Below, one piece after another: positions 1 to 17,816 of a stretch of DNA of 20,000 nt. Both the position numbers and the translations under genes were made by a program. The first letter of the stretch is position 1, and each line of letters starts with the position of its first letter. Under the pieces are notes generated by a model. The model ran no database searches. It was not told the origin of the DNA and worked only from the letters and a program-made list of their open reading frames with translations. Origin of the DNA: Limisphaerales bacterium (GTDB lineage Bacteria > Verrucomicrobiota > Verrucomicrobiia > Limisphaerales > SIBE01); the NCBI GenBank assembly GCA_044225505.1, contig JBGAIN010000004.1, forward strand, positions 134,572 through 154,571, given 5' to 3'.

Positions 1-2
1 AG

Positions 3-995
3 TAAGGAGGTATCATCGTTCGCAAACGCGATTTGACCGCCAACCGGCACGTCGTCTCCAGTGCCGATTTGCCCATCGGGTCCGGCACTCGCAAGGCGCA
101 GGCTACCATTCGCGACGCTCGACCGGAGCAAGGGTTCGCTAAAACGGACGCTGACCTGGCTAAGTTGGCTCGCGAGCACTTTTACATTGGAGGATGGAGT
201 CGTCTCGACTACCGCCGGCGGGACGGTTTCCTTAGTGACCAGGAACACGAGCGGATTGCTCCAGGTCGCGTTGCCCACAACATCGGTCGCGCGCGCCCGA
301 ATTTCGACCTGGGTTTTCCCGGAGGTGAAGGAAGGTGCGGTCAGCAGCGCGTCAAACGGCGCACCGCCGTCGACCGTAACCAGCTGGCCATCCACGAAGA
401 ATTCGACCTCGCGCACGAGTTGATTGTCCACGGCATCGGCAAGAACAAGAAAGAGGCGGTCATTCTCGACCGAGAGCGGGACCTTCGAACCGGGCTGGGC
501 ACGCAGAGTGATACTCGGTGCAATTGTTTCGGCCACTGGCGATATAAACTGGATAACCGACAAACCGGCCGCCGCATCCGCGACCAGCGCCACTCCCCGA
601 TGAACCGCAATTGCTTCAGCATCCCCTCCAGGCGTGATCACCGCCGTCACGAATCGGTCTGTGCGCGTGGGATCGCTGACATCGAGCAAGTTGAGTAACT
701 TGTCAGACAGTAGATTGACCGAACCACCGGAAAAAAGGAGTTTGCCCGACCCTGCGGGAGCACTGCTGATGGCGGTGATGGGAGATGGCCCGCCGATCCA
801 CGTCAACGTGCTGCCAGCATCGCGCAAAACCGCAACCCCCGGAACGGCGTTCGTGTCGATTGGCGTTACGTAAATCAGCCCCTCCGCAACGGCGAGCTCC
901 ATCCCGACAGGGGCGCCGAATCCCACGTCGATGATATAACTTGCGAGCGACTCACCCAGTGACGCGCTCAAATCCAGCTTGTGAACGGTGAGCAA
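3..995 (-). CDS. Copy B fragment: end of LVIVD-like propeller plus Ig-like domains (absent from the ORF track because it runs off the edge)
   Basis: Manual translation from 995 is open to the edge: LLTVHKLDLS...LLDVSDPTRTDRFVT...HRGVALVADAAAGLSVIQF...DNQLVREVEFFVDG...RARATDVVGNATWS...SAGPDGQIGTGDD, matching copy A (DDVQVRDVEFYIDG, RAKATDTGGNSTWS, EAGADGKLGTADD). Confidence 0.85.
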   Translation of the reverse strand, partial: MLTVHKLDLSASLGESLASYIIDVGFGAPVGMELAVAEGLIYVTPIDTNAVPGVAVLRDAGSTLTWIGGPSPITAISSAPAGSGKLLFSGGSVNLLSDKLLNLLDVSDPTRTDRFVTAVITPGGDAEAIAVHRGVALVADAAAGLSVIQFISPVAETIAPSITLRAQPGSKVPLSVENDRLFLVLADAVDNQLVREVEFFVDGQLVTVDGGAPFDALLTAPSFTSGKTQVEIRARATDVVGNATWSNPLVFLVTKETVPPAVVETTPSSNVKVLASQLSQVSVRFSEPLLRSSVANGSLRLASAGPDGQIGTGDDVPVGGQIAFANDDTSL

Positions 996-1926
996 GACCG
1001 TTACAAATCAGATAAACAAAGCCTTCCGCGACAACCACGTGGTCAATCGCGCCTCCCGAATAAGAGCGCGAGCTCACGACTGCTCCGGTCTTCAAATCCA
1101 CCAGGAACAGGCTGCCTGATCCCACCCAGGCGTAGTCACCGGAAGCAGCGAGCGTGACGGGAATGATCTTTACCCGCACTTCTCGTAATCCAATTTGGCC
1201 GGCGGGCGAGGAGAGATCCAGAATCGTGAAGATCCTCCCGCCTGCGCTTGCAAAAACTCCCCAGCGGTGCGTCAGTGCGACCAAAGGCCGCTGCGCGGTC
1301 GGAAAAGCTTGATTGCCGATGCGCAACGGATGATCCGGCTGTCGAACATCAAACCAGCTCACCCCCTCGGTGCTTCCGGACCGGACCAAAGCCAAATCGC
1401 CATCGACCGAGATGGCACGCGCCCGTCCCAGCGTCGGAACCGTGGCGACCGCACCGACGGCGGCAGGTTGTCCATCCAGAGGGTTGGAGTTGGCGACGAG
1501 TTCCAAACGGTCGCTAATGCCGTCACCGTCGGTATCCGCTAAATCCGCGGAAGTGCCCACGATATGCTCTTCCATATCGGAAAGACCGTCACCGTCCGAG
1601 TCACCGGCCACTGCGATGAGTCCCGCATGGAGAATTGCACTCGGGATAAACGTCTCCACGCCGTTGTTCGCGGACCGGAAAATGGCGGCACCAGCGCGGC
1701 TAAGCTCTGGATCGTAGTAGCTGACCAAGTAGTATTCGTCGGGGGCGAGAATCAGATTCTCGATCTGTCCTTGGGCATTGAGTCGGCCGCGCTGCTCAAA
1801 GCCCGTTTGCAGCGAACCGATGCGGAACCAATCGCCCGGTCGTGGCCAGACAATGCCAGAGTTGGTATAGCTTAATTCCAACTCGGTTAACGTGGCCGCC
1901 TGCCCAAAGCTCGCCAGGGGATCCAA
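952..1926 (-). CDS. Copy B fragment: Ca-binding DxDxDG repeats and start of LVIVD-like beta-propeller
   Basis: DSDGDGLSDMEEHIVGTSADLADTDGDGISDRLELVANSNPLDG, then repeats such as GVSWFDVRQPDHP and FTILDLSSP; homologous to copy A at about 8400-9240. The last ~14 codons are out of frame. Confidence 0.8.
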   Translation of the reverse strand: MDPLASFGQAATLTELELSYTNSGIVWPRPGDWFRIGSLQTGFEQRGRLNAQGQIENLILAPDEYYLVSYYDPELSRAGAAIFRSANNGVETFIPSAILHAGLIAVAGDSDGDGLSDMEEHIVGTSADLADTDGDGISDRLELVANSNPLDGQPAAVGAVATVPTLGRARAISVDGDLALVRSGSTEGVSWFDVRQPDHPLRIGNQAFPTAQRPLVALTHRWGVFASAGGRIFTILDLSSPAGQIGLREVRVKIIPVTLAASGDYAWVGSGSLFLVDLKTGAVVSSRSYSGGAIDHVVVAEGFVYLICNGLAHRSQAGFERVTG

Positions 1927-2111
1927 GCCGAGCCTGGCGAATCGAGATTCTTGGCTCCGCAGACCTGCTGACCGTCAACCGCCGCAAGGACCGCCCAGAG
2001 CTTGGCGACATTCCATCAGATCTTTGAGCTTGTCATCGCATTCCTCCAACTTCTCCTGCTTATCCTGATTCCATTTCTTGAGTTCGGCGGGGTCTGTTGG
2101 GGGCGTGCCTT

Positions 2112-2618
2112 TCAAATAGCGTTCGCAATACCCATCCCAGCACGCAACATAGTTTGGTCCTTTGAGGTCACAAGGGTCGTCGCAGGGCGGATCAGGCAGG
2201 CGCGGATATGGCGCGGGCTCCCTCCACCATTCCGGGGTCCGCTTACTGCTTCCAGGTAACTCACGCCGTCCGGTTGACGCACGCCCACTCCCAGATCGCT
2301 CACGGCAAAGTTTCCATCAGCACTGATCGTCGCCGAACCTTGGATTTCCCAACGCCCCGTATCGTGACTAAAGCTCCAGAGCGCCGTCTTGGCGCCAGGG
2401 GAAGGTTTCAATCCGGTGACAGGATCGGGCAGGTTCGGAAATCGGACAGGGACAGGCACATCGAAGTTGGAGGCGCCGTCCGTCTGAATCGTAATCACAA
2501 GCGGAAAATTCAAGCCAGGCGGCAAGGGTCCTGGCAACCGATCGGCCGGGACCGGCGCAATGCCCACCTTGCCCCACGCGCGCCGTTGTCGCCGAAGAGC
2601 AGTTCGGTGGAACAACAA
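2112..2618 (-). CDS. Copy B fragment: conserved scaffold domain (only about 2275-2570 is the true reading)
   Basis: KVGIAPVPADRLPGPLPPGLNFPLVITIQTDGASNFDVPVPVRFPNLPDPVTGLK...WSFSHDTGRWEIQGS nearly matches copy A MVGMAPVPPDRLPEPLPPGLSLPLVITIQTDGARNFDTPVPVKFPNLPDPVTGIK...WSFNHDTGRWEIQGS. Confidence 0.75.
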   Translation of the reverse strand: MLFHRTALRRQRRAWGKVGIAPVPADRLPGPLPPGLNFPLVITIQTDGASNFDVPVPVRFPNLPDPVTGLKPSPGAKTALWSFSHDTGRWEIQGSATISADGNFAVSDLGVGVRQPDGVSYLEAVSGPRNGGGSPRHIRACLIRPATTLVTSKDQTMLRAGMGIANAI

Positions 2619-3345
2619 TTTCCACGCCGCTCATCGCCGGATTCGTGGAGAGGACCGAGGGCAAAGTGATCTCGGTCCCGGCCGTGGCGCTCACGTTTGA
2701 AGCGCATCCGCTTGAATGAGCGGCAGAAAAATCTCACCCGTCCCGCCGGCCAGGTTGTTCGTTCGGCCCGCGACGGCCTCCCAAGCCTTGCCCACGAACG
2801 GATAGTACGCGCCGCCCGGCCAGTGACTGCGCAGGATGCCCGTCTATGTGGACGAAGAAAGTTCCCGCCGGTGCCGGCGAGAGACGAAAGAAACCGTTGG
2901 CATCCGTCGTCGTCCGGAGGGTTTCTTCGGCGCCGTCCACCGTGATCGTGGCGTTGACCAGGGGGGCATTGGTCCCACTCGCCTTTTCAGAGGCGAAAAC
3001 GTGCCCCGTCACCGCTGTCCCTTCCAGGCCAACCACACCAGGCGTATCGAAGGCTGAGCTCGAAAACGCCTCCCGACAACCATCGCCGTCCGCATCGACT
3101 CCCAGACCCGTCCCGTCCAGCGTCACGCGAACACGCGCGCTTCCGGGCAGGTTCTCCAAGTAAAAGAGCGTGAGCGTCTGACGATCGCTGGAAAGTTCTG
3201 CCCGCGAGAGGAGGCGTCGTCCGCTGAATTCAGCAAAAAGGTCCGCGCTGGTCACCACGACATCTGGATTCAGCGGAGCCGAAAGGCGAAAAACTGTCTC
3301 CCGAGTGACCGCGACGGTGGATTCGCCGTCGAAAGGTGACGTGCT
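2275..3345. repeat. Diverged direct repeat (paralogous coding DNA), copy 1; partner at about 10315-11420
   Basis: Shared stretches visible by eye, e.g. tccgcttgaatgagcggcag (about 2707 and 10758) and ggatagtacgcgccgcccggcca (about 2800 and 10851). Confidence 0.85.
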
Positions 3346-3648
3346 CGCAATCGTCGCGGCCGCAGCAACGCTGTTCCGCAGCCGATAAAAGCGGGTTTCC
3401 GCCGCGGGTTGGAGATTGATAAACCACGAACCACCCGCGGATTGAGGCGTTTCCGCGACAGGGCGCCAGTTCGAGAGTGATCCCAACTGTTCGCTCTGCT
3501 CCAAGGTAAGTTCCGATGCATCTCCGGACCATGTCAGCTGAATAGATCGAGACGGAAGTTGTTGAATGCCCAGGAAAGGCGCAGCTGCCCAAAGGGTAGA
3601 GGAATAAAGTTGGAAGAGTCCGAGAACTGCCGCGCTAATTACCTTCAT
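2734..3648 (-). CDS. Copy B N-terminal fragment: signal peptide, FYRL module, Ig-like (Big_5/SbsA-like) and carboxypeptidase-regulatory-like domains
   Basis: MKVISAAVLGLFQLYSSTLWA signal peptide; IQLTW...LEQSEQL...W...TRFYRLR; VTGHVFASEK...NATITVDG..TTTDANGFFRL. The frame is lost after about 2828. Confidence 0.85.
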   Translation of the reverse strand: MKVISAAVLGLFQLYSSTLWAAAPFLGIQQLPSRSIQLTWSGDASELTLEQSEQLGSLSNWRPVAETPQSAGGSWFINLQPAAETRFYRLRNSVAAAATIASTSPFDGESTVAVTRETVFRLSAPLNPDVVVTSADLFAEFSGRRLLSRAELSSDRQTLTLFYLENLPGSARVRVTLDGTGLGVDADGDGCREAFSSSAFDTPGVVGLEGTAVTGHVFASEKASGTNAPLVNATITVDGAEETLRTTTDANGFFRLSPAPAGTFFVHIDGHPAQSLAGRRVLSVRGQGLGGRRGPNEQPGRRDG

Positions 3649-3656
3649 GCAAATCC

Positions 3657-3685
3657 ATACTGACCGGCTCCCGTGGTGGCGTCGA
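3657..3685 (-). promoter_or_regulatory. Possible sigma70-type promoter for copy B, giving a near-leaderless transcript
   Basis: TCGACG-N17-CAGTAT on the minus strand, ending 8 nt before the ATG at 3648; no Shine-Dalgarno sequence is evident. Confidence 0.25.
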
Positions 3686-3782
3686 GGGAAGAAGCGGCCG
3701 ATTTAACAGCCCAAACGGCCGCGATCACGTGTGCCCCCCTGGCGTCATTGCCGACGACTCCAGAGTGAGGGCAGCGCTACGC

Positions 3783-4250
3783 TCACTCCGCGAAACGATA
3801 GGCAGTGTTGAATTGCAGCTCCCTATTTTCTGCCTTGAGCCGCAGAACTACCGTGCCCCGCTTCGTATCGACCGGTGTGGCTTTCCCTTGGATCGGACGA
3901 GTCTTGCCGCTGCCATTGGTGGTCGCCAGACCTGTAAAGTCAACCGCCACGCCGCTCGCGAGCCGATCCAGGGTCTCGTCGGAGACCTCGATGGTCAGCC
4001 GACCTTTTTCGCTTTTGAAGAAATACGGGGAAACATCGAACTGATAGTTACCGGTGTAGGTGTGCCACTGACGCACGAGCACGCTGGTGGTCAGCTTCGC
4101 TCTGCCTCCCTGGACTTTGGTCGAGCTGGGATCGAGCAGCACATCGCTGGCTTTGGCTTTTGCCAAGGTCACAGGGGGCAAAACCTGAGCACTGGCCCAA
4201 TGGATGGCAACGAGCGTCAACGGGCCTAGCGTTGAGAGTTTCAGGCTCAT
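3783..4250 (-). CDS. Hypothetical secreted beta-rich protein (155 aa)
   Basis: ATG start, signal-peptide-like N-terminus ending in ASA-Q, alternating beta-strand pattern (YTGNYQFDVSPYFFK, LQFNTAYRF); same strand as both neighbours and fills the gap between them. Confidence 0.85.
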   Translation of the reverse strand: MSLKLSTLGPLTLVAIHWASAQVLPPVTLAKAKASDVLLDPSSTKVQGGRAKLTTSVLVRQWHTYTGNYQFDVSPYFFKSEKGRLTIEVSDETLDRLASGVAVDFTGLATTNGSGKTRPIQGKATPVDTKRGTVVLRLKAENRELQFNTAYRFAE

Positions 4251-4263
4251 GATTCGTATCTCG

Positions 4264-4291
4264 AGACGCTGCAGTTTTTTTGAATATTTCC
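4264..4291 (-). promoter_or_regulatory. Candidate ECF-sigma promoter GGAAAT-N17-CGTCT upstream of 4250
   Basis: Minus strand reads GGAAAT attcaaaaaaactgcag CGTCT, ending 13 nt before the ATG. It resembles the general ECF consensus (GGAA at -35, CGT/GTC at -10, A-tract in the spacer). Confidence 0.4.
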
Positions 4292-4499
4292 GACGACAGC
4301 CAATCGCCAGACCTCAACAGTATGAGACCGTTTGGAGAACCTGTCTATAGGGTAAAACCCGTTTCCGAAGATTTTGTGTCTCCAAACGCCGAGGCCCGTT
4401 CAAGGCGCGGCGAATTTCGGCGGGGTTTGAGCTGTGGAACCTTTTGCCCACGTCCTCAACGCTCCGACAAGGCAACAGAAGGTTTCTCCGTTTCTGCCA

Positions 4500-5201
4500 T
4501 CACCAACCTACGGCGAAGCCACGACACGCAACTTGACCGCGGTAGCGCATACACGCTTCGAACCGTTTGCCGCCGCCCAAATCCGCGCCTTCCACCGTGG
4601 TAAAACGCGGGGCGGCGCTGTTGATCCGAGTCCCCAGGAGAATGGTAAATCCCTGGCCCAGTTCGGGGAGGAAATTATTCCGAAGGCTCAGGCGCAAAGT
4701 GCCGACCAAATACAATGCGCCCTCGGAAAAGACCTGGTCGTGCTCGCTTCCCGCTTGTAACCCGCCAATCTCGATCTCCAGGACACCGTTGGTCGTCTGT
4801 TCAAACCGACCACTGAACGTAGTCGTGCGGTAGACGCCCAGAGGCGCCCCCGGCCGTAGAATCGCGTTGTTGATGAACAATGAGCTGAGATTGGTGCCAG
4901 CCCCGCTGAGAATCCCGGAGTTGTGTTCGCGTAACGTTACGTTCCCGCCCGCCAACTGAAGCTCACCGGTGGAAGTCTGCACCAGGCCGGAGCTGAATAC
5001 CAAAACCCCTCCACGGACCGAGAGAAGTCCCGAGTTCGTCACGGCGAGGTTCGAGAACTGCAGGTTTCCCGAGCTATCTTTGATGAAGGTCCCCTGATTG
5101 ATGAAAGGGCTCAGATTGACTCCGCCGCTCCTCATGGTCAGCGTGGCTCCAGGTAGGTTGACCATCCGTCCGGTCGACGCACGGTTGAATTCTCCCGTCA
5201 A
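4500..5201 (-). CDS. C-terminal continuation of copy A (beta-helix/passenger-like repeats); likely true stop is TAG at 4508-4510
   Basis: Repeat style continues from the upstream ORF (FINQGTFIK, VTNSGLLSVRGGVL, GVLEIEIGG...DQV...LVGTLRLSL...GQGFTIL). It overlaps the upstream stop as TTGA. Repairing two more indels near 4553 and 4544 gives the end ...KRFE-VYA-TAVKLRVVASP*. Confidence 0.8.
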   Translation of the reverse strand: MTGEFNRASTGRMVNLPGATLTMRSGGVNLSPFINQGTFIKDSSGNLQFSNLAVTNSGLLSVRGGVLVFSSGLVQTSTGELQLAGGNVTLREHNSGILSGAGTNLSSLFINNAILRPGAPLGVYRTTTFSGRFEQTTNGVLEIEIGGLQAGSEHDQVFSEGALYLVGTLRLSLRNNFLPELGQGFTILLGTRINSAAPRFTTVEGADLGGGKRFEACMRYRGQVACRGFAVGW

Positions 5202-8200
5202 AGACCGAGCATGGTCAATTGGCCGGCGTTTTCCAGAGTGGCGCCGTTCCTCACCCCGGCGCCGCCCATGACTTGCGCGCCATGCAAACGGAGTGTGCCT
5301 TCGCTAATTCCCGTCGAGACATTTGTCGAAGTGATCAACTGTTCCGTGACTTCCACGCGCCCTTGAGCCCGAAATTGGACGCTGCCACTAAAGTTCTTCA
5401 GTTCCAGCTCCCGCAAGACGTGATCCCCGTCAAAAAGTGGAGTTTGTCTGTCAAGAATGGCGCGCCGGATATCCAGGCGCCCCCGAACGGTAATATCATT
5501 GAGCAAAACCTGCCCTTCTCCCGTAACGAGGCCATTGGTTTCCAAAATACCGCCATCAATTCCAAGCGTTGCGCCCGCCGCCACTTCGAACTGACCGCGC
5601 TGCGGAGAATAGTAAAACGTCGTCTCGCCCGAGCGAATCTCCACTCGCCCCTCGTTGGCGAGTTGAAACTGGCTGTCGCGAGCACCCTGAACAACGATCC
5701 GCCCATAGTTCGTTCCGACGGGGGACGTCCGCTGACCGGCATTGATAAAGTTCCCACTCACGATGCCAGCCCCATCGAGCGCATCGATCACACCGCCGGT
5801 CTCGTTGACAAAGAGCGACTCATCGTAACAGCTCACCCGCGCGTTGGTGATTTGCAGCGTGCCAAAGTTCCGGACGTGGACGGTGTCGTAAAGGTTCCAG
5901 GAAGCAACGCCTCCCCCCACCGCCGGTGGCCGATATTGAGTCGTGCCGAGCAGCTTAAGTTCTCCGGAGCCTTCTGCCCGCTCGATCTTCATGCTGGCGA
6001 AATCGCTAACGGTGAGGGTATCGCCCAGACGTAGCCGGGACCAGGGCGATTGAATATTCAGCCGCTTGATCGTAAGCGGCGCCGCGACATGGAGAGTGCC
6101 GCCGTACATGACGATGCCGTTCGTCCCGAAGTCCTGATTTTCGCCTCCTAACGCCAATGTATCTGACGATGAATTGTTGGTATAGGCCAACCCGTTTTGC
6201 AGTCGGACATTACCCAGCAACGCGCCACTCACGTAACGCAGCATCAACCCATAGACCTCCAGACTGCCGCTAGACGTATTGCGAAAAATGCCACTCTCCA
6301 TTTCGAGCTGAGAATTCGGCAGACGGACGAGCCCGTTGTTCTCGAAATCGAGGGTCTGCAACCGCCAGGCGCGTCCATCGGGCAGCCCTTCAATCAAGCC
6401 CTGATTGATGAGGCGGGAACTGGTTCCATCGCTGCCTCTCGTTCCGGCAATCCGATCTCGCTCAATGAAGGCCGGAGTGGTTGGAGTCAACCGAATCACG
6501 CCGCTCGCCAGATTCTCAATCGTCGCCGTATTGTTCTCTAGCAGCCACACGCCCGAGGTGACGTCGATATGCCCGGAATTCCGGAGGGTGCCCCGCTCCA
6601 GACTTGCGGCATTGGGTCCAAAGGTATTGCCCGTGCTGGGACTTCCTGTCCCGCCTCCGGTAACGAGCGCGTCCCCACGCAAGTCGATCAGACCGCCCGC
6701 CAAGGTGGAAGCGGCGTTCCAACGCAGTGGCCCGAGCAACTCCGCGGTGTCAGTCACGTAGAGCCGGCGTCCGTTGAGCAGAATCTCCTCGGTCGCCCGC
6801 AAGGTGGTCAAGGTTGGATTGGAGTTCAGAGTGACGCTGACATTGGTGTCGGGACGGTCAATCACCGCGTGGTCGTTGAAGATGGGGGCGAGACCGCCCA
6901 GCCAGTTCCGCCCGGATTCCCACGTGCCACTGGCATTCGTCGACCACAGTGTCAGTGCCTTGACGATGAAATCAGCGGTTAGATTGGTTTGCACGGACGA
7001 GCCAAAAACATCGCGAATCTCAGGGGTGAGCACAATCCGCCACGCCCCATTGGCGATCGGTTGGGTAAATTCCAGCACCGCGCCTCGCCCATTGGCGGAT
7101 AGGGAAGTGCTGCCCCCGGAAAGAACGGTCGGGTTGACCAGATTCGTGCTGAGCACGCGCAACGATGCGGAGGTCACAGACGATGCGGAAAGACGCTCAT
7201 CAAATCGCACTTCCACGCGCCGCAGCGTGTCAGTCACCCAAACGGATTGGTTCGATGGCAACGCTTCGACTGGCTTCGGCGTGGGAATCGAGAAGTCCCA
7301 AGTCACATTCGTTCCCAAAGGATTGCCCGCTAGATCTGCCGCGCTGGCCGCGACCTGGGAGCGGTACTTGCCCGAACGCAACGGCGCGGTGTAGCGCAGA
7401 AGCACGGTGAGTTGTTCGGTATCGTAGGCCACTTCCCCACCGGATACAGGCGCGTCGTCCGCCGTGCCGAGTTTGCCATCGGCACCGGCTTCCGTCAGCG
7501 CCCATCCCGTCGAGAGATTCGAGAGTCGCATCACCGAATCAAACGTGGCAGTGAGAGATGAAATCGAACCGCGCGGCGGAACGCTGTTGTGGACAGGAGT
7601 GATCGAAAGTAATCGCGGAGGGGTTAAGTCCGGCAGAAGCGTGAGTGTGATCTCCTCTGACCAGGTGCTATTCCCGCCAGTGTCCGTAGCTTTCGCACGG
7701 ATCACGAAGCTGGATTGGTCATCCGTCTTCTGGGGGGCCCGCAGCGTGGCGGCAAAGGGATACTTGCCACTGCGGGCCACGGAGGCGCCGTCGATGTAAA
7801 ACTCCACGTCCCGCACCTGCACATCATCGCTCGTCGTGGTGCTCACGAAAAACTGTTCCGTGGCTTCCTGGCCACCTGGCGGATGCGAAGGAAAAGCCCG
7901 CAAGTTAATCGTGGGCGGGGTTGTCCCGCGATCTGGCGCGAGGAAATTCACCACTCCGAAACCTGCCTCGCTAACCGCAGCCAGTGCATAACCGCGATGA
8001 AGATTCAGGTCACGTGGCAGCTTCGGCAGCGCAAAGGAAGTAACGAAGTTCGTCGCCTGGTCGGATCGCACATCGTAGACCTCCACATTCAACGTTTGCC
8101 CGCCGAGCAGTAGGCCCGTGCCGGAAAGCGCCAACGCACGCATCGGCAGGGCCGTATTGGTGTTGGCGTGAAGTAGAACGGGCGAGGCTGGATTTGCGAC

Positions 8201-11200
8201 ATCGATGATACGAAACCCCCTCGCATCCCCGACATAAGCTCGCCCATTCCCGACGACCAGTTCTGGGCCAGATTCTCCCGCAGGCACGGCCAAAGTCCCG
8301 ACGTCTAACCCACCCAACTCCTGCAAGGAATCTCCAGCAATCCGGTAACTGAACAAACGCCGTGTACTCGCACCCCAGAGAACATCCCCATCCAAGGCCA
8401 GGGTCGTGATCGGAAGTCCTCCGGACACCGGAACATGCCGCAGGACTTGCGCTCCATTCAAGCGAACGACCGCCAGCGACGGCGCGTTGGCGGACCTCCC
8501 TGGTGCGTAGGCGTAACGACCCGCCGCCACCACTGTCTCAGGCACCGCGCCGAGCGCGACATTGCCCGCGGCGGTCAAAACCCCGTCGGCCGAACGCGTG
8601 AAGAGATAAACGCCCGCGGTCGTCTGGGCCGATGTTCCCGGAATGGCGGCGACGAAATCCCCCGCTGTCGCGACGGCGTCGAATAACAAGCCGGTCGCGG
8701 GGAGAACCTGGTTTACCAGCACGGGCGCAAGCGGGTTGGCCATATTGAACAAGGCGAGGCCGGAACTGGAGTCCGCCACGACGGCGCAATCGTTGACGGT
8801 GTCCATCTTGACGGCCGTTCCAGGGGTCTCGCGCGTGGCCATCACTCCCAAGCCGAGGGGCTGCCCATCGTTCGGGTTCGTACCGGAAGCAATCTCAGCT
8901 CCATCGGGCACTCCATCGCCATCCGTGTCGCGGCGCTGCGCGTTGGTGCCACGGATCAACTCTTGAAAATCGGTCAACTCGTCACCATCGCGATCCGTGG
9001 TCACGTCCGGCCCCATCGGCGCGGCAGGAATGCGGGTCGTTCGTCCGGACGTGCCGGAAATGAAATAAGCCGAGCCCGTATGCCCAGAATTGGGATTGAA
9101 ATAAGAAACGATGAAGGGCGTGTTCGGAGGCAGAATCAAAGGGGGAAACCGGCCATCATTTCCGAGTTGGCCATGGCGCACAAAACCAGAACGCAGGTCG
9201 ACGAGGACAAAGAAATGCGCCGTTGCGGGAAAGGCCATATCGACAGCGGGCGTGGGCGTGGAGGGCGCCATTTTCGCGGCGGCTGCCACGGGTCGCGTCA
9301 ACGCTGGATAAGCGCTGGAACCAGCCGCCGGCTCTATCAGTCCCGTCAACTCACTTAACGCGCGCACCGCGCCATCAAAGAGGGTCGTCCACCCTTCGCC
9401 AGCGACCACGGCCGTCAGAACGTCCAATTCGGCAAAGGCTGCGATGAACGCGTCCGCGGCGGGAGTTCCGGCGCGAAACTGGCCGTTGGCCATTTCGGCC
9501 AACCGGGCGAGCAACTGATCCACATCCGCGATGCTCGCGTGGTTGGGACGCGGCACAGTCAAAAGGCTGGCGCGTTCCTCGGTCGTAACCTGCTGGCTAG
9601 CGGGGCTATTGGTCGCCACCGCGCTCTGGACGGCACTGAAAAAATTCTGATAAACGGAAACGTCCTGCGGCGTTTCCGCGCCTGCCCAAACACCTGATCC
9701 CCAGATTTGAGCGCTCAGATTGCTGGCTGCGGTGGAGACCGCAATCTGTTGCTCGAGCAGCGCAATCAAACGATCCAACGCCGTGCTGGTGCTTCCGCCG
9801 ACGGACTCGAGCGCACCCTTTGCTTTGGGCAACGAAAGGAGACTGGGGCTGGGCTTGCCGAGATAGCAGTCCTGGAGCGTTTTCAAATTGATCACGATGG
9901 ATTTGAGCGACCAGGCCGCCCCTAGAACGGCGCCCGCCTTAGGCACGCAACCCAACGCGCTGCCGATGGCACCGTCGATGATCGCGTTGCCGAAGTTGAT
10001 TTGAGCGCATGTCGCAATGTTCATGGAACAATCCCGGGCCGCTCGAGCCGCCGAAGTCGCAACTCCCAGGGCGCAGTCTCCCGCGTCGCCGCCCGTGCCT
10101 CCGGCCGCTGCCAACCCCATGTCCGACGCAAAGTCCGTGGACGACGTGATCACGGCTTTGGCTTCCGCTCGGCAAGGGTTATCCGGACAGGTGGTATCCC
10201 ACACACTGCAATCCGGCTTATCCGGGGGAGGATCCTTGCGGCAAGTGCGGCAGGGCGGGTCGCCGTCACAATCGGTGCCACAGCCGCTCCCGCCTGGGCC
10301 TGGACCGTGCCACCCTGGCTGACGCACGCCCACTCCGGGATCGCTCACCGCGAACAAACCGTCCGCGCTAATCGTCATGCTGCCTTGGATCTCCCAGCGA
10401 CCCGTATCATGGTTGAAGCTCCAAAGCGCCGTCTTCTCGCCAGGGCCCAGCTTGATGCCGGTGACCGGGTCGGGCAGATTCGGGAATTTCACGGGCACCG
10501 GCGTGTCGAAGTTGCGCGCTCCGTCCGTTTGAATGGTGATGACCAAGGGCAGACTCAAGCCAGGTGGCAGCGGTTCCGGCAAACGATCGGGCGGGACGGG
10601 TGCCATGCCTACCATTCCGCCACGCGTTCCGTTGTCCGAAAACAGCGCGTTTGCCGGCACATTAATCTCGACGCCCGCCAGTGCGGGATTGGTGGCGAGC
10701 ACGGAGGAGGCGAAGGTGATTTTCGTGTCCGCTGTAGCGCTGACGGCTTTGAGCGCGTCCGCTTGAATGAGCGGCAGGAAAATGACTCCAGAACCGCCTG
10801 CGAGATTGTTCGTCCGCCCTGGCATTGCATCCCACGCCTTGCCCACAAATGGATAGTACGCGCCGCCCGGCCATTGGCTACCCTCGGCCGTACGCCCGTC
10901 TACCGAGACGAAGAACCTTCCCGCAGGACTGGGCACTAGCCGGAAGAATCCGTTTGTGTCCGTGGTCGTCCGCAGTGTTTCCTCCATCCCATCGACCGTG
11001 ATCGTCACATTGCGTAACGGCCGATCGCTGCCGTCGGCATTTTTCTCGGAAGCGAACACGTGACCTTCCACGCCGGTTGTCGCCAGCGCTGTTGTGGAAA
11101 GCGTTTCGAATGTCAGCTTCGCTGCTCCCCCGAGCACCCCGTCACGATCCAGATCGACCGGTAGATTGTTCGCATCGAACAATGCTGTGCCATCGAAAGT

Positions 11201-11746
11201 CACCTCGACACGGGCGTCGGCGGGCAGATTCTCCAGGTAAAACAGCGTCGCGGTGCGATGATCTTCGCTCAGTTCCGCCCGCGAGAGCAGCTTGCGCCCG
11301 CCGGCAAAGGCAAACAGATGGTTGGCATCCAACGTGGCATCCGTCGAGAGCGGACCAGACAAACGGAAGATCGTCTCCCGTGTCACCGCGACGCCCCCCT
11401 CGCCTTGCGCGGGTGACGTAGAGGCCAACGTCAACGGCAAGGCACCAGCCAACCCTCTCAAGCGAAAGAATCGGGCCGCGTCCGTTGGCTGTAAATCGAC
11501 GACGTTTTGTCCTCCGATCACCTGCACCGTGAGCGCGCTCGTGGACCAGGGGCGTTCGACGCCAGGAGCAAACTCGAGTTGCTGCTGGCCCGACTCGCCC
11601 GGCCACGAGAGACGCACACGCCCGTCTGGTAACGCCACCGCTTCGATCTGGATCTGCGCTTGCGCGAGGGGAATGAATAAGAGTGTCCACAATGCGATGA
11701 TCATCCGCGCACGCGCGCTGGAGCGAAGAGATAACTTAGCGTCCAT
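5198..11746 (-). CDS. Giant exported multidomain surface/adhesin-like protein, copy A (2,182 aa; about 2,400 aa with 4508-5201)
   Basis: Signal peptide (...LLFIPLAQA); FFRL module (about 11455-11655); Ig-like and carboxypeptidase-regulatory-like domains (about 10310-11430); Cys-rich/helical insert (about 9245-10300); DRDGDELTD/DTDGDGVPD Ca repeats (about 8870-9000); LVIVD-like propeller (GLALFNMANPLAP, GFRIIDVANPASP; about 7950-8850); three Ig-like domains (about 6950-7930); then WSTNASGTWESGRNW and Asn/Gly-rich beta-helix-like repeats. Confidence 0.93.
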   Translation of the reverse strand: MDAKLSLRSSARARMIIALWTLLFIPLAQAQIQIEAVALPDGRVRLSWPGESGQQQLEFAPGVERPWSTSALTVQVIGGQNVVDLQPTDAARFFRLRGLAGALPLTLASTSPAQGEGGVAVTRETIFRLSGPLSTDATLDANHLFAFAGGRKLLSRAELSEDHRTATLFYLENLPADARVEVTFDGTALFDANNLPVDLDRDGVLGGAAKLTFETLSTTALATTGVEGHVFASEKNADGSDRPLRNVTITVDGMEETLRTTTDTNGFFRLVPSPAGRFFVSVDGRTAEGSQWPGGAYYPFVGKAWDAMPGRTNNLAGGSGVIFLPLIQADALKAVSATADTKITFASSVLATNPALAGVEINVPANALFSDNGTRGGMVGMAPVPPDRLPEPLPPGLSLPLVITIQTDGARNFDTPVPVKFPNLPDPVTGIKLGPGEKTALWSFNHDTGRWEIQGSMTISADGLFAVSDPGVGVRQPGWHGPGPGGSGCGTDCDGDPPCRTCRKDPPPDKPDCSVWDTTCPDNPCRAEAKAVITSSTDFASDMGLAAAGGTGGDAGDCALGVATSAARAARDCSMNIATCAQINFGNAIIDGAIGSALGCVPKAGAVLGAAWSLKSIVINLKTLQDCYLGKPSPSLLSLPKAKGALESVGGSTSTALDRLIALLEQQIAVSTAASNLSAQIWGSGVWAGAETPQDVSVYQNFFSAVQSAVATNSPASQQVTTEERASLLTVPRPNHASIADVDQLLARLAEMANGQFRAGTPAADAFIAAFAELDVLTAVVAGEGWTTLFDGAVRALSELTGLIEPAAGSSAYPALTRPVAAAAKMAPSTPTPAVDMAFPATAHFFVLVDLRSGFVRHGQLGNDGRFPPLILPPNTPFIVSYFNPNSGHTGSAYFISGTSGRTTRIPAAPMGPDVTTDRDGDELTDFQELIRGTNAQRRDTDGDGVPDGAEIASGTNPNDGQPLGLGVMATRETPGTAVKMDTVNDCAVVADSSSGLALFNMANPLAPVLVNQVLPATGLLFDAVATAGDFVAAIPGTSAQTTAGVYLFTRSADGVLTAAGNVALGAVPETVVAAGRYAYAPGRSANAPSLAVVRLNGAQVLRHVPVSGGLPITTLALDGDVLWGASTRRLFSYRIAGDSLQELGGLDVGTLAVPAGESGPELVVGNGRAYVGDARGFRIIDVANPASPVLLHANTNTALPMRALALSGTGLLLGGQTLNVEVYDVRSDQATNFVTSFALPKLPRDLNLHRGYALAAVSEAGFGVVNFLAPDRGTTPPTINLRAFPSHPPGGQEATEQFFVSTTTSDDVQVRDVEFYIDGASVARSGKYPFAATLRAPQKTDDQSSFVIRAKATDTGGNSTWSEEITLTLLPDLTPPRLLSITPVHNSVPPRGSISSLTATFDSVMRLSNLSTGWALTEAGADGKLGTADDAPVSGGEVAYDTEQLTVLLRYTAPLRSGKYRSQVAASAADLAGNPLGTNVTWDFSIPTPKPVEALPSNQSVWVTDTLRRVEVRFDERLSASSVTSASLRVLSTNLVNPTVLSGGSTSLSANGRGAVLEFTQPIANGAWRIVLTPEIRDVFGSSVQTNLTADFIVKALTLWSTNASGTWESGRNWLGGLAPIFNDHAVIDRPDTNVSVTLNSNPTLTTLRATEEILLNGRRLYVTDTAELLGPLRWNAASTLAGGLIDLRGDALVTGGGTGSPSTGNTFGPNAASLERGTLRNSGHIDVTSGVWLLENNTATIENLASGVIRLTPTTPAFIERDRIAGTRGSDGTSSRLINQGLIEGLPDGRAWRLQTLDFENNGLVRLPNSQLEMESGIFRNTSSGSLEVYGLMLRYVSGALLGNVRLQNGLAYTNNSSSDTLALGGENQDFGTNGIVMYGGTLHVAAPLTIKRLNIQSPWSRLRLGDTLTVSDFASMKIERAEGSGELKLLGTTQYRPPAVGGGVASWNLYDTVHVRNFGTLQITNARVSCYDESLFVNETGGVIDALDGAGIVSGNFINAGQRTSPVGTNYGRIVVQGARDSQFQLANEGRVEIRSGETTFYYSPQRGQFEVAAGATLGIDGGILETNGLVTGEGQVLLNDITVRGRLDIRRAILDRQTPLFDGDHVLRELELKNFSGSVQFRAQGRVEVTEQLITSTNVSTGISEGTLRLHGAQVMGGAGVRNGATLENAGQLTMLGL
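10315..11420. repeat. Diverged direct repeat (paralogous coding DNA), copy 2; partner at about 2275-3345
   Basis: Same shared nucleotide stretches and near-identical peptides as listed for copy 1. Confidence 0.85.
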
Positions 11747-11790: not shown

Positions 11791-12038
11791 GGCCTTAAGG
11801 GTGCCGCAAATCGAATTATTAGTAGAACGGCGCTGCGCAACGCCAGACAGTAAGCACGACACAGCTCGAGTGCCTACTTCGCCCAGTCTCAGAGTTGCCA
11901 TTGGATACACCGAGTGGCTGGCGCTGAAAGCCTGGTTCTGCCACGAGAAGGGTTAGAACTATGGCAATCGACAGGTCTGATTCGAGCATTGTTTTTTTCG
12001 ATTATCAGTTCCGCATAGGGAACCGCTACGCTTGGGCC

Positions 12039-12806
12039 ATGACTTGGACTCAAGTCCTGTGCCGTAGTCGTCGCTTGTCATTTCAATGTTGGCTCGCGCC
12101 GCTCCTGGGGGTGTCGCTCGAAGCAGCGCCGGGCAAAGAGCCGTCCGCTGCGTTGAGGTCTGGCGGTGGCCACGATTCCGTGGTCTTGCTGCACGGCTTG
12201 GGCCGCACCGCTCTTTCCATGAAACGCATCGAATGGGCTCTGGAGAAGGAAGGTTTCCGAGTTATCAACGTCTCTTACCCATCCACTCGCCTGTCCGTCC
12301 AAGGCGCGGCCCAATGGCTCCGCGAGCTGCTTCGTCAACGGATCACAGACCAGACCGCAACGGTCCACTTCGTCACTCACTCCCTCGGCGGTATTATCCT
12401 GCGACAGTCGCATTCGGATCATCCGATCCAAAACCTAGGGCGCGTGGTGATGCTCGCGCCGCCCAACCAGGGCAGCCAGTTGGCGGACCGACTCAAGAAC
12501 AACCGTCTATTCCGAACGCTCACCGGGCCAGCTGGCCAACAGTTGGGCACAGGCGCGGACAGTGTGCCCTCCCAACTCGGTCCAGCTGATTTCCAGCTCG
12601 GGATCATTGCCGGAGATCGTTCCTTGAATCCATGGCTCTCGAGGTGGATCCCCGGTCCGGACGACGGCAAAGTTTCCGTTGACGCGACGAGGCTGGAAGG
12701 AACGCGCGATTTTCTTCTCGTCCATCGAACACACACCTGGATGATGTGGCGGCACGACGTGATCCGGGCCGTGGCGGGGTTTCTCCGGCACGGCTCGTTC
12801 CGATAA
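12039..12806 (+). CDS. Alpha/beta-fold hydrolase (esterase/lipase family), possibly exported
   Basis: VVLLHGLGR oxyanion motif, nucleophile elbow THSLGG, LAPPNQGS, catalytic Asp (DDGKV) and His (THTWMM). Start could be 11961; 12039 gives a signal-like N-terminus. Confidence 0.93.
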   Translation: MTWTQVLCRSRRLSFQCWLAPLLGVSLEAAPGKEPSAALRSGGGHDSVVLLHGLGRTALSMKRIEWALEKEGFRVINVSYPSTRLSVQGAAQWLRELLRQRITDQTATVHFVTHSLGGIILRQSHSDHPIQNLGRVVMLAPPNQGSQLADRLKNNRLFRTLTGPAGQQLGTGADSVPSQLGPADFQLGIIAGDRSLNPWLSRWIPGPDDGKVSVDATRLEGTRDFLLVHRTHTWMMWRHDVIRAVAGFLRHGSFR

Positions 12807-12896: not shown

Positions 12897-13736
12897 CTAG
12901 CGCGGTGGAGGCACGGGGTTTTGTTTCTGGCGGTCTCGTTCCTGGCGGAAGGCATCGCGGCGTTCCGTGACGTAGGCCATGTATCCAGCTGAATCGATGA
13001 AGGGGTTCGGGCCGCCCGGCTTCAACTTGGCGTGCTTGGCACTCAGGCCGAAATAGGAGCCGTGGGCGCCCAGGAAAATATCGACCGGCAGCTTCAGTAA
13101 CACAGCGAACGCCTTTTCGTAATCTTCGGCGATGCCTGGATAGTCCTTGTTGCCGACGAGAATATAGTCTGGGTTCACATTGGGGCTCCCGATGATCACC
13201 GCTATCAAACGGCGCCCGTTCTCCTGAACCTCCATCGTCCACGTCGTGCATCCAGGCGTATGACCGGGAGTCAAGCATGCGGTCAGCCGCGATCCACCCA
13301 ACTCCACCTTTTCGCCGTCGTGCAGCACGTGGTCCACCTTTGCTCCAGGCCGGCCTGGCGCCTTGCTTTCCACCGCGGCCACGTCGGGCTCCATTACCAT
13401 CAGCCGGGCTCCGGTCTCTTCCTTGATCTGACCGACCGCGCCGTCGTGGTCGTCGTGTGCGTGGCTGATCAGGATGATTTTCGTATCGCGGTAATTGAAC
13501 CCTAGCTGATGGATACTTCTCCGAATGAGCGGAAGGTCCTGAGGAAATGCGGAATTGATCAAAATGTTGCCCTGGGCGGTATTGACCAGGTAAACGGCTA
13601 AATCGGCCGTTCCGACGTAATAAAGGTTGTCCGCGACTTTGAAGGGTGGAAACTCGCGATGCCAATCGGATTGAGCGGCAACGGACAGGGCGTGCATGGC
13701 GATCAGTAACCCTATCGAAAGCACGAGGTTTTTCAT
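12897..13736 (-). CDS. bla: Subclass B3 metallo-beta-lactamase, FEZ-1-like
   Basis: Signal peptide MKNLVLSIGLLIAMHALSVAA; PPFKVADNLYYVGT; zinc motif SHAHDDH (HxHxDH); TPGHTPGCTTW; IIGSPNVNPDY; DIFLGAHG; NPFID. These follow the order and wording of Legionella FEZ-1 as I recall it. ATG at 13736 is preferred to 13910 because it places the signal peptide at the N-terminus. Confidence 0.93.
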   Translation of the reverse strand: MKNLVLSIGLLIAMHALSVAAQSDWHREFPPFKVADNLYYVGTADLAVYLVNTAQGNILINSAFPQDLPLIRRSIHQLGFNYRDTKIILISHAHDDHDGAVGQIKEETGARLMVMEPDVAAVESKAPGRPGAKVDHVLHDGEKVELGGSRLTACLTPGHTPGCTTWTMEVQENGRRLIAVIIGSPNVNPDYILVGNKDYPGIAEDYEKAFAVLLKLPVDIFLGAHGSYFGLSAKHAKLKPGGPNPFIDSAGYMAYVTERRDAFRQERDRQKQNPVPPPR

Positions 13737-14001
13737 GATGACATCGACGACCGGTGACTGCTCCCAAGAGTAGTTCGGACGAAATGGGCGGACAAGGCTG
13801 GATTGGAACGGCGTCTCCATTCTTCTAAAAAGTCCCGACCAGAATTCGAAGAAAAGGGCGTCCACGGACACTGCGCCGACCTTCACACTCCATTTCTTCG
13901 ATTGGCCCATGATAATCCGAAGGCTTGCGAAAGGCCGTTATGCACGCCAGGGTGCAGCGTGGTTGTAGATGTGCGGTTCGGTACGGGAAGTTCCGAGATC
14001 T

Positions 14002-14492: not shown

Positions 14493-17400
14493 TCAGGGAG
14501 TTCTTGCCCGAAAGAATCCAGCTTGGCCTTTGGGCGCGATGTAAGGACTGACCGCACCCACGATATCGACGAAAGGCCCATCCAGCCGGGGCGAGAAGGT
14601 GCAAATGCCCTCAAACGTAATAGAAACTTCGCCTTGAGGCGTGACGGCCGCCCGCACGGTGGGGAGGCGGCTCGGGGGGCCGATCGGAGGCGCCGGCTCG
14701 CTCGGGTTGTTCGAGCCGCCGCCCGTCTCCAGACCGGACACCGGTGCGTTTCGGCGCAGCCAGATGGGGTTCCCGTAGGCGTAGCGTTGGGCGACCGGTT
14801 CGTGCGTGCCGCCGCCCGTTCGGGCAAACGCCCGGACAAAGAAGCGATCGGCGGGAATGCCTTGGCCAACCTGGTATTTATCAAGATCCAGCGTCGTCAC
14901 CAAGGTATGGGAGAAGCGGAGACTGGCACCAGGCACATGGTTCCAGGTCACGATGTCGCCGAGAAACTGGCCGTCCCAGTAGTTGTCCGTGCGCCGCACG
15001 TAATTCCGACCGTTTGACTCATACGAGAACGCGCTGCCCTTGGCCCCAAGCCCGTGGGTGGGTCCATGATCCAGAGGGGCATAGACACGAGGCTCGACTT
15101 TGACGGTAGACCCAGCGGAGGTGGGTGCGGGGTGAACGCCAACATACACGTCGATATCCAGAATTCCGCCGAACTCCGGGGTGGAAATCACTTCGGTCAG
15201 CAAAGTCAGTTTTTGTCCTCGCACAGCCGGAGCAGACCGGTCCGTGCGGGGGGCGAAAGAATGGATGCCACCCATTTGGATGTCCGTCTCGTCGATCTGG
15301 CCGTTCCCGTTCAAGTCAATGGCCATCCGCAATGCCGGTCCGTCGGTCACACAGAACTGGCCGCCCCGCAGGGCGCGAACCATCTGCTCATGCGAGTGCG
15401 CACGGATCCGCCGGGGACCAATTGGGCCCGGGGTCGTGATTGGCCCACCAGGATCTCGGGTAATTGGTGGATCCAGGGTTAGAATGACGGGGCCTTCCGG
15501 GGCGCCAGCGAAAACGAGATTCCGCGGTTTACCTATGGCTGTGTCGTTGGCGTCATCAGTTCCGAGAAAATACCCAGCGCGCCGGTAGTTGAGATCGCCA
15601 TGCGCGTCCGAACCACCGCCCATGAAGAAGCGACGCGGTTCGCCCGGCTGCAACCACGCCAGTCTGGCTTTGTTTTCAAAGTCCAGCCCGGTCAGGTTCA
15701 TCACGTCCCAATCAAAAGCGCCATGGATTAGTGTGTGCTCCGTGGCCCCGGTATTTAACTGCCACGCTCCCGTGCGAAGATCGAACGGAACGAGCTCGAA
15801 AAGGCGATCTCCGGTGAACCCGCGCCGCGCTTCTTCGAGCGGGAGCGCGATCTTGTGGAATTCCTCCGGCACAAGATCCAAACCTGTGATGCCCTCGACC
15901 ACGAAGACGAGCAAATCCTCCAACGGATTGGCGCTGCTGGCCTGCAGTTTTTCGTTTCGCTCATACCCCCGTTCCTGCCCCAGGAATGTTCCCAAGTCCC
16001 CACCGTTCGGGCGGCAGAAATCATGGCTGCAAACCCGGGTGCGAAACCGGACGTCTTCATTCCAGAATTCCAACCCGAGGACGGCGGGAGAGCGGAAGCC
16101 TTTGAGCAGCATGTGGTCCGTCGTCCAAGGAACACTGTCTGGGCCGCGTCCTCCCGAGGATGCATTCAAGTGATGGGCAATGAAGACGACTCCTTTCCTT
16201 TCCACTTCGGGCAGCAGTGGCTGGCCCGTGGATCCTGAAACAGAAAAGGCACTGTCCAACCGGCGGGTGGCGCCGCCAAATCGGCTGGTTTGACTGGGGA
16301 TAAAGGCGCTTTCGTTCCCGACGGTTGGCGCCGAGGTATTGGGAAAGTAAACCAGGTGCTGCCGGCCGAAGAATTGGAAAGATTCAAGGCTTTGGAAATC
16401 GTTGACCAGGGCGCTTTCGGCGTCGCCGATCGTGAGCAGCGACTGGCGAGGATCGTTGCATCCGCCCGGCGCGCAGAGTGTTCCCAGTTCGAACTTGAGC
16501 CCATTGCCATACGGTATGTTAACAATGACCGGGCCGGCAACGGTCTGGATGGTGTTGGCTTTCACGGTCGCCAAGCTGACTTCTCCCACCGCATCGATTT
16601 CACCTCCCAGGAAGATTTGGGGAAACACGTCATAAGAAAGGAAGTTCTGAGGGCGTCGGCTTCCGGCGCGAAGGGTCGCTTCGCTATTGACCCCTCCAGC
16701 CCCATAGATGAGCTCATGGCAGAAGGCGTATCGGAATGCGTTCAAGTCCCTGGCAACGCCACCGGTGGCCCGTGCGTCGCTCTCGAACAGCTTGTCTCCG
16801 TGAGAATGAGCCACTTCGGCGATTTTGTGGACGGGTGGTAAATCAGCATCGACGATTTGCTCAGAACTCGAAGCGTGATCGACGGCAAAAACAAAATCCA
16901 TACCCATGGCGCCCATCGCGCGCACAACGCCGCGGTAATTGTAGGCAGACTCCCCTTCGTTATCCGTCCCTTGCGAGTGGTAATGTAGATCGCCGTACAA
17001 CCAGCGGTTGTCAAAACGCGGGAGCGGCGCGGGAGAGAGATAAACACGGGCGTAATTGCGCAAGGTGATCACCTCGGTGATCGGAAACCCCAAGACCGTT
17101 CTTTGGCGCTCGAGCAGGACTTCGATCTGCAGGGCGACAACAGTGCCCGGATCCCGGTTCTTCGGACTGTAATAGAGCGTGGCATGCCATTCACTAGTTT
17201 CGGCAACTTCGCGGAATGGCTCTGGATCCTCGCCATTCCAAATTCGGCAAACTTTATGGAACGGCTGATTGGAAGGGCCAACGGGCCATGGCCAATCGCC
17301 CGTGGTGAACTCAAGCTCATGCAGCGACCGCAGTGGGAAATCAACGGCGGCCATTTCCGTCGGTCCTAACTCCTTGATCCGCACGGCGCGAAACCGGCCC

Positions 17401-17744: not shown

Positions 17745-17773
17745 AGTTGTATCGGTGGTAAGCTGGCCGTGAG

Positions 17774-17816
17774 GACATTCTTTCAAAGAAAATGTCAAAT
17801 CTTGCCGTTACGGCAA
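17774..17816. promoter_or_regulatory. Two adjacent palindromes in the divergent intergenic region (candidate operator/promoter)
   Basis: GACATT(17774-79)...AATGTC(17791-96) and TTGCCGT-T-ACGGCAA (17802-17816); a perfect TTGACA on the minus strand (17798-17793) faces the PHP gene. Confidence 0.4.

Follow-up and report, generated by a model that had tools for sequence, protein, structure and literature searches.

Two giant exported proteins of a sludge verrucomicrobium with an internal exchangeable cassette: a putative surface-tethered relative of polymorphic toxin carriers

In polymorphic toxin systems of the Rhs, CdiA and MafB kinds, a constant carrier bears an exchangeable C-terminal payload and is accompanied by cognate immunity genes and orphan modules. 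Here we analyse a stretch of 20,000 nucleotides (the window; contig JBGAIN010000004.1, positions 134,572 to 154,571) from a sludge bacterium of the order Limisphaerales, which encodes two giant exported proteins, copies A and B. Like Rhs, CdiA and MafB, the family to which A and B belong combines a constant carrier, which is secreted and multidomain, with payloads that are exchangeable on this shared carrier, and a highly conserved region immediately precedes the variable part. An initial annotation made from the sequence had proposed that a constant exported scaffold harbours the exchangeable, probably disulfide-bonded module internally, and our analysis bears this out, the Cys count being even in 177 of 222 inserts that are fused to the downstream scaffold. 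The analysis adds a ZU5/GAIN-B left flank lacking the nucleophile, a beta-sandwich within the cassette, split forms with C-terminal payloads and the probable assembly errors in copy B.

Two described groups come particularly close. The ZU5 polymorphic toxins, in those parts of the survey by Zhang et al. 2012 (PMC3482391) that were available to us, are likewise exported by a signal peptide and have a ZU5-superfamily domain that precedes Rhs or another payload, and Tox-PLA2 and metallopeptidases are payload classes common to both. The MAIN proteins, according to the accessible text of Brogan and Rudner (bioRxiv 10.64898/2026.05.12.724683), resemble the A/B family in their GAIN-B/ZU5 fold, in being large and secreted, and in their fusion to adhesion, enzyme or toxin domains. 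On balance, we favour the view that the A/B family descends from ZU5-Rhs toxin carriers and displays polymorphic effectors tethered to the surface, and its members are best read as mainly verrucomicrobial, Sec-exported carriers that are retained at the surface. More tentatively, they may form an undescribed polymorphic class, in which an internal slot is clamped between a cleavage-dead ZU5/GAIN domain and a TSP3-propeller stalk and is reloaded by double-crossover exchange of payload plus adaptor. If this were true, dozens of disulfide-stapled effector or binding families would act in a tethered state and would need no immunity genes, and the split cassettes would link the tethered display class to Rhs toxins.

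Architecture of copies A and B

Copy A is encoded on the minus strand by a single open reading frame (ORF) at 11746-5198, corresponding to 2182 amino acids (aa), and extends beyond a frameshift into the ORF 5201-4500. The frame break near 5200 is a probable assembly frameshift: a contig of sequencing run X5 (see below) spanning 5153-5362 shows a 1-base gap, and the closest homologues among the matches listed have 2404 and 2417 aa. With regard to the C-terminal beta-barrel that marks classical (type Va) autotransporters, the tail ORF 5201-4500, the end of which is possibly frameshifted itself, gave no match in Pfam or NCBIfam. The features of copy A are as follows.

11657..11746, minus strand: signal-peptide-like N-terminus, residues 1-30 (judged by eye)
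11447..11656, minus strand: small terminal module (L.W..LE..W..RFFRL), residues ~31-100 (recognised by its genome-wide occurrence)
11087..11434, minus strand: Ig-like domain of Big_5 type, residues ~105-220 (Big_5 at the same place in homologues)
10757..11086, minus strand: transthyretin (TTR)-like, CarboxypepD_reg domain, residues ~221-330 (PF13620 at residues 238-283, E 1.2e-4, under the curated cutoff)
10307..10756, minus strand: ZU5/GAIN-B (MAIN)-fold domain, ending in QPGWH (model and fold comparisons); left cassette boundary at 10307
9233..10306, minus strand: variable payload, 358 aa, 12 Cys, all-alpha (AlphaFold model)
8999..9232, minus strand: putative beta-sandwich of ~78 aa (GF..G.L..LIL.P), exchanged together with the payload (identity profiles of close pairs)
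8861..8998, minus strand: TSP3-type DxDGDG repeats, right cassette boundary (PF18884, E 4e-5; identity step in close pairs)
7937..8860, minus strand: LVIVD beta-propeller (PF08309, E 6e-4 in A, stronger in homologues)
6950..7924, minus strand: Ig domains, one Big_7 and two Big_5 (Pfam)
4500..6934, minus strand: C-terminal tail preceded by a probable beta-helix stalk (no Pfam match; the beta-helix is assigned on the basis of sequence)

The Pfam order CarboxypepD_reg (TTR-like), TSP3 repeats, LVIVD repeats, Big_7 and Big_5 is common to A and B, although several of these matches fall below curated cutoffs. The family as a whole follows the order signal peptide, terminal module or dockerin, Ig, TTR-like, ZU5/GAIN-B, payload plus beta-sandwich, TSP3, LVIVD propeller, Ig and variable tail. 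The two copies had been described as near-identical up to the motif GVGVRQP, which overstates their similarity, as pieces of their N-flanks share 65% and 48% identity at the protein level and 71-81% at the nucleotide level. The insert of A was described accurately as a Cys-rich helical segment of about 350 aa: between PGWH (residue 480) and the right flank (residue 838) lie 358 aa with 12 Cys, and the payload is all-helical in an AlphaFold model of residues 325-859 (61 sequences; pLDDT 78, pTM 0.49). At the level of profiles, the inserts of A and B are indeed unrelated to each other, as alignment of the A-type with the B-type profile is confined to a Gly/Pro linker of 13-14 columns (hhalign probability 21-23%); that they might be distant homologues is rejected by this comparison. 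The B-type payload is related to a second short type (P0016 group). Searches with the A payload returned no Pfam match, only sub-0.9 matches in the ESM Atlas and no significant fold match; Foldseek comparison of the payload, modelled with its flanks, to ClyA-type alpha pore-forming toxins, which are characterised by a hydrophobic tongue on a long helical bundle, gave E-values of 0.38-1.0, probabilities of at most 0.15 and an rmsd of 28-38 Å. The B-type insert has no Pfam match and no usable match in the ESM Atlas.

Copy B starts at 3648 on the minus strand and leaves the window at the left edge, running through several frames.

2263..3648, minus strand: signal peptide, terminal module, Ig, TTR-like and ZU5-like domains; the reading frame of this part is interrupted by indels that are probably due to assembly
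1846..2262, minus strand: variable payload, ~140 aa, with a hydrophilic core of ~70 aa and 6 Cys (two C-x9-C spacings)
1605..1845, minus strand: beta-sandwich of the cassette (HMM match, E 2e-28)
1..1604, minus strand: TSP3 repeats, LVIVD propeller, Big_7 and Big_5; the gene continues past the left window edge

The B insert is found in a minus-strand frame that is missing from the ORF list, and it reads as quoted initially. Its shortness and its frame were recognised correctly, but the number of Cys residues is probably six rather than seven, since the Cys codon at 2127-2125 differs in all four sequencing runs considered and intact homologues carry Tyr at this position. Logan contigs of these runs (X1, X2, X5 and X10), which come from four studies, were compared over positions 700-5600, the comparison drawing on 12 of 36 tabulated indels and 40 of 94 tabulated substitutions; the source sample itself may be among the four runs. 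The assembly analysed here has a TGA at 1977-1975 inside B. At the frame breaks of B and across this TGA, X1, X2 and X5 show compensating indels and changed letters, and X10, covering 16 of 30 bins, has some of the same differences. Moreover, single contigs bridge B colinearly (1116-4437 in X1 and 951-4380 in X2), with no long joint across the insert. The only joint listed (2303-2701, in X2 alone, with a side of 29 nt) reflects an A-bearing contig that cross-maps onto B. In P0018, P0075 and L019, the B-type insert is intact and comprises 143-158 aa. That the short insert results from a deletion during assembly, a possibility raised at the outset, is ruled out by the bridging contigs from other runs together with the intact homologues of the same length. 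In view of the bridging contigs and the compensating changes, the breaks are most likely consensus errors; that is, the frameshifts, the stop and the seventh Cys of B are probably errors of the assembly, and a strain-specific pseudogene is a strictly conceivable, less probable alternative. Further frame-broken genes are present in this genome, including a probable CoA-transferase gene to the left of B and several paralogues elsewhere. RNA runs contain just 6-7% of the words.

Cassette exchange and payload repertoire

Exchange was surveyed in 204 proteins, with the TSP3-propeller-Ig part taken as the C-part. Among 232 neighbour pairs with C-parts at least 55% identical, 62 pairs carry payloads of different clusters. 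For instance, P0062 with a phospholipase A2 (PLA2) payload and P0074 with an A-type payload share 88% identity over the N-flank and 84% over the C-part, as against 19% in both insert and beta-sandwich, and the flanks of P0099 and P0103 are 96 and 90% identical around inserts and beta-sandwiches with 31 and 30% identity, respectively. Comparison of A with P0002 yielded identities of 92% for the TTR and 89% for the ZU5 domain, 30-33% for the insert, 45% for the beta-sandwich and 66% for the propeller. In sliding windows over seven hand-picked pairs, identity drops on the left where PGWH ends and rises again on the right with the first TSP3 repeat, these steps being abrupt in five pairs and mild in two, which indicates that payload and ~78-aa beta-sandwich are exchanged as one unit. 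Thus, the fall of identity at PGWH in close pairs is compatible with a breakpoint at the GVGVRQPG boundary, whereas the scaffold does not realign at GF..xG.L...G...LIL.P, as had been assumed: this beta-sandwich travels with the cassette, and the true right boundary is the TSP3 repeat. An N-flank tree (125 rows, built by a quick method) requires 31 changes to accommodate the 18 payload groups, as compared to a minimum of 17 and a mean of 52.8 after shuffling, but the starred branches force at most two origins per payload group.

One observation weighs against hypervariability. The inserts had been expected both to resist alignment with each other and to diverge faster than the scaffold, and the first holds at the profile level, but among 40 A-type proteins the insert shows a median identity to A of 27-28%, as compared to 31% for the propeller. 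As the A-type insert diverges about as much as the propeller, hypervariability is visible only in close pairs. It could also be argued that there is no cassette exchange at all, but a weakly constrained middle between flanks that look conserved owing to gene conversion among paralogues or to chimeric metagenome assembly. This explanation would draw on the TTR-ZU5 flank, which at 74-76% identity is far more conserved than every other part, on the origin of all family sequences from metagenome assemblies and on the many frame errors in this genome. However, unrelated folds (PLA2, peptidases, Rhs and propeller-like) share one slot, flanks that are 84-96% identical surround cassettes that are unrelated or 30% identical, and the inserts of A and B each have intact homologues in other assemblies, so that we consider it very improbable.

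The N-flank was found at 10 loci in this genome, in 12 of 61 related genomes and in 6 of 301 genomes across the phylum (both counts including this genome). A protein search with the N-flank yielded 1021 proteins at E ≤1e-20 among 7997 candidates, the best 120 of which were examined, and a search with the ZU5 part yielded 577 representatives at 50% identity with E ≤1e-30, the best 150 of which were examined, and about 1,500 with E ≤1e-10. By title, 44 loci from GTDB genomes belong to Verrucomicrobiota, except one from Planctomycetota and one from Entotheonella. Segments following PGWH were cut from 244 proteins, a set that is not dereplicated and is biased towards A. They fall into 45 BLAST clusters, 37 of which contain a member fused to the right flank; clusters 3/11/17 and 6/10, and partly 0/13, merge by profile, and the unrelated payload types are therefore fewer than 45.

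Several payloads are recognisable. PLA2 domains match Pfam above cutoff in P0081, P0100 and L055 and carry the motif CxxHDxxY in 12 of 12 cases. L045 has an M8 peptidase (E 4e-8), HExxH is present in 11 of 16 members of one cluster, paralogue C121 among them, and the payload of C65 matches M12/M10 weakly. Rhs payloads with C-terminal tips occur in C123, L022 and P0146, the Rhs core of C123 being confirmed by TIGR03696 and NF041261. P0167 has an M15 peptidase (E 1.6e-7) and P0196 a DUF3238 match under cutoff; a propeller-like fold also occupies the slot. By their motif, we take L006, P0177 and P0150 to be M15 peptidase payloads as well. A colicin-M-like motif, which we presume to be present in P0054 and P0156 (the full motif in one of two plus P0054), serves as a lead only, and P0156 has no relevant sequence match in the PDB. 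Most payloads, the A-type and B-type included, lack a Pfam match, and most appear to be Cys-stapled helices. The initial proposal of an effector system gains from the overlap of this repertoire with the effectors of polymorphic toxins; for A and B themselves, however, an effector role is deduced from their relatives.

The same repertoire could be read as a display of nutrient-scavenging exoenzymes, with cassettes that digest lipids, proteins and dead walls nearby and take no part in conflict. In favour of this, those payloads that can be recognised are hydrolases, the dockerin-cohesin tethering described below recalls enzyme display, and such a display has been proposed for MAIN-domain proteins, the usual partners of which are hydrolase and adhesion domains in the accessible part of the preprint (bioRxiv 10.64898/2026.05.12.724683). 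However, Pfam scans revealed no glycoside hydrolase or carbohydrate-binding match inside the payloads (one galactose-binding-like domain in L045 is located behind the M8 domain), and Rhs cassettes and the high cassette turnover suit conflict better, making this reading unlikely.

Tethering, split forms and neighbouring genes

The left flank of the cassette has a ZU5/GAIN-B fold, as judged from moderate scores that agree across four methods. Its fold relatives are the ZU5 domain of ankyrins and the GAIN-B domain of adhesion GPCRs (PDB 3f59, 3ud1, 6v55 and 4dlo) with 9-16% sequence identity; these reside in a different context, and the common fold shows no common function. When Pfam was applied to the ZU5 alignment, one of 36 members matched PF00791 (E 0.12). 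In A, the cleavage motif H-F-S is replaced by Q-P-G at 10321-10313. Two sets of motif-matched sequences contain Q-P-G in 136 of 143 and in 101 of 107 cases, with Gly at the position of the nucleophile in all of them, and the domain is thus probably cleavage-dead in the A family. Self-cleavage between Asp and Pro of a conserved D-P-G was given low weight as the Pro varies (DLG, DSG, DAG). A regex search of this genome for ZU5 domains of the HFS type gave no convincing case. Homology connects the TTR-ZU5 module with the carriers of Rhs toxins, including the HFS-bearing TTR-ZU5-Rhs protein L071. L069 (genome G310) and L071 (G427) are distant TTR-ZU5-Rhs proteins, one of which combines an intact HFS with a weak match to the teneurin YD-shell; they are candidates for the autocleaving ancestral form.

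The small terminal module of A and B is a putative surface-attachment module that would anchor the protein, and in some relatives a dockerin takes its position. This module of ~70 aa, ending in [FY][FY]R[LV], occurs in 62 proteins of this genome, in 45 of them at the C-terminus only, and is a possible lineage-specific sorting or anchoring signal. At three loci where the family protein begins with a dockerin, the genes located downstream are related to each other, and one of them matches cohesin in Pfam; these cohesin or cohesin-like genes (L006:16419-17321, L008:8225-8974 and L013:6859-7788) may represent a non-cellulosomal cohesin-dockerin pairing in Verrucomicrobiota. A dockerin at the N-terminus together with a cohesin-like neighbour suggests tethering at the N-terminus.

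In the effector display that we favour, the ZU5 domain would descend from autocleaving TTR-ZU5(HFS)-Rhs carriers and would have lost His and Ser, leaving the payload covalently tethered, and recombination in conserved TTR-ZU5 DNA on the left and in TSP3 repeats on the right would replace the cassette. A tethered payload could act only on extracellular targets that it touches, i.e. membrane lipid, surface protein or cell wall, and this restriction matches the recognisable payloads. The role would be contact-range antagonism or lysis of neighbours or prey. The helical payload of A would be a putative membrane-active or target-binding domain, and that of B a putative small, disulfide-stapled binding domain; a small hydrophilic domain with six Cys appears to suit binding better than catalysis. 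Acquisition of a cassette carrying a stop and a new signal peptide would generate a split form, leaving Rhs or M15 peptidase payloads with a free C-terminus.

Split forms are indeed present. In C123, L006, L022 and L076 the payload forms the end of the protein and the beta-sandwich-TSP3-propeller-Ig half is a separate downstream gene, which has a signal-peptide-like start in the first three. A second L019 locus looks split, its N-half being outside the DNA examined. The locus C123:26798-36671 of this genome (L060) encodes an Rhs-type member with a helical tip of ~240 aa after DPYG, followed directly by the C-half gene, with no immunity gene visible at this locus. More generally, no recurrent small downstream gene that might provide immunity was detected in the 44 loci (ORFs of at least 90 aa). 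Orphan cassettes were not found in this genome either, as all seven HMM matches to the beta-sandwich lie inside scaffold loci, although sensitivity is limited, three divergent paralogues having been missed. A 457-aa secreted protein without Pfam match, encoded between the split payload gene and the C-half gene (L076:3276-4646), is the sole immunity-like candidate seen.

These observations also bear on whether the family might be a variable adhesin or recognition protein with a disulfide-stapled binding head, in which enzyme cassettes are occasional captures and which serves kin recognition, floc attachment or antigenic variation against phage and grazers. Non-enzymatic helical domains make up the commonest cassettes (the A-type accounts for 104 of the 244 sampled and is also found in paralogue C190), and the B core is small and hydrophilic and lacks a catalytic motif. 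The scaffold is built from adhesin-type domains, with weak matches to myxobacterial MtsD/CglD that concern the TSP3 repeats only; immunity genes were not found in the 44 loci and the release domain appears dead. However, cassettes of the PLA2 (with the His-Asp motif intact), HExxH/M8, M15 and Rhs kinds turn up repeatedly on separate branches of the N-flank tree, and the homology of the TTR-ZU5 module to Rhs toxin carriers likewise speaks against an adhesin, which we regard as the main rival explanation but as less likely than effector display.

Additional genes neighbour the scaffold genes. Between A and B, a 155-aa secreted protein without Pfam match is encoded (3783-4250, minus strand). Among 150 other genomes of the order, four contain a homologue, one of them (G048) without a scaffold match, and for lack of linkage to the scaffold we reject it as an immunity protein. 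A conserved Gly-rich secreted protein of ~380-460 aa is encoded beside the scaffold gene in 12 of 44 loci (e.g. L008:7007-8218, L002:14171-15307 and, in this genome, C123:36705-37940 and C198:25887-27140) and is absent beside A and B; it has no convincing match in Pfam or NCBIfam, is fused to Kelch in L036 and L076, and is a probable partner subunit. Upstream of A are genes for a presumed alpha/beta-hydrolase (11961-12806, plus strand; HSLGG) and for a secreted protein that we take to have a metallo-beta-lactamase fold resembling subclass B3 (12897-13910, minus strand; HAHDDH motif). A further exported protein of 1101 aa (14493-17798, minus strand) has no significant Pfam match and displays what we assume to be a PHP-like metal-binding pattern (GDLHYHS, DH, DAH). 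The segment 17861-20000 (plus strand) presumably encodes an ECF-type sigma factor and, immediately behind it, a Ser/Thr kinase running to the contig end; this pair may regulate the neighbouring exported genes.

Comparison with known systems

Taken together, the A/B family is real and appears to be an undescribed variant of polymorphic toxin carriers. A literature search retrieved no description of it, and the ZU5 passages of PMC8195603 contributed nothing further; the supplements of PMC3482391 and of the MAIN preprint may list members. Unlike Rhs, CdiA and MafB, copies A and B have no C-terminal payload, cognate immunity gene or orphan module. The relationship to the ZU5 polymorphic toxins is closer, as TTR-ZU5-Rhs proteins (C123, L022 and P0146) are members of the family. 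It differs from them in that the payload is internal in A, B and 222 of the 244 proteins sampled and is followed by a conserved C-half, in that the autocleavage residues are lost and exchange appears to have two boundaries, and in that no immunity gene (44 loci) or orphan cassette (this genome) was found. In those parts of the survey by Zhang et al. 2012 (PMC3482391) considered here, Tox-PLA2 and most Tox-MPTases are likewise listed without an immunity protein.

Discovery of polymorphic toxins relies on C-terminal variable domains beside immunity genes, and internal, tethered cassettes would therefore be missed. The slot provides a position-based route to dozens of secreted domains of Verrucomicrobiota that lack annotation. 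Members of this phylum are common in sludge, soil and freshwater, and little work has been devoted to their conflict systems. In MAIN proteins, as far as described in the accessible preprint text (bioRxiv 10.64898/2026.05.12.724683), which mentions neither Verrucomicrobia nor inactive domains, the domain undergoes autoproteolysis at H-x-S/T and adjoins a C-terminal wall anchor, with the cargo being N-terminal. In the A/B family, in contrast, the motif is Q-P-G, the variable cargo follows the domain on its C-terminal side and the probable anchor sits at the N-terminus. Thus, the family offers a natural cleavage-dead counterpart to the autocleaving MAIN/GAIN domains, in which release versus tethering becomes directly testable.

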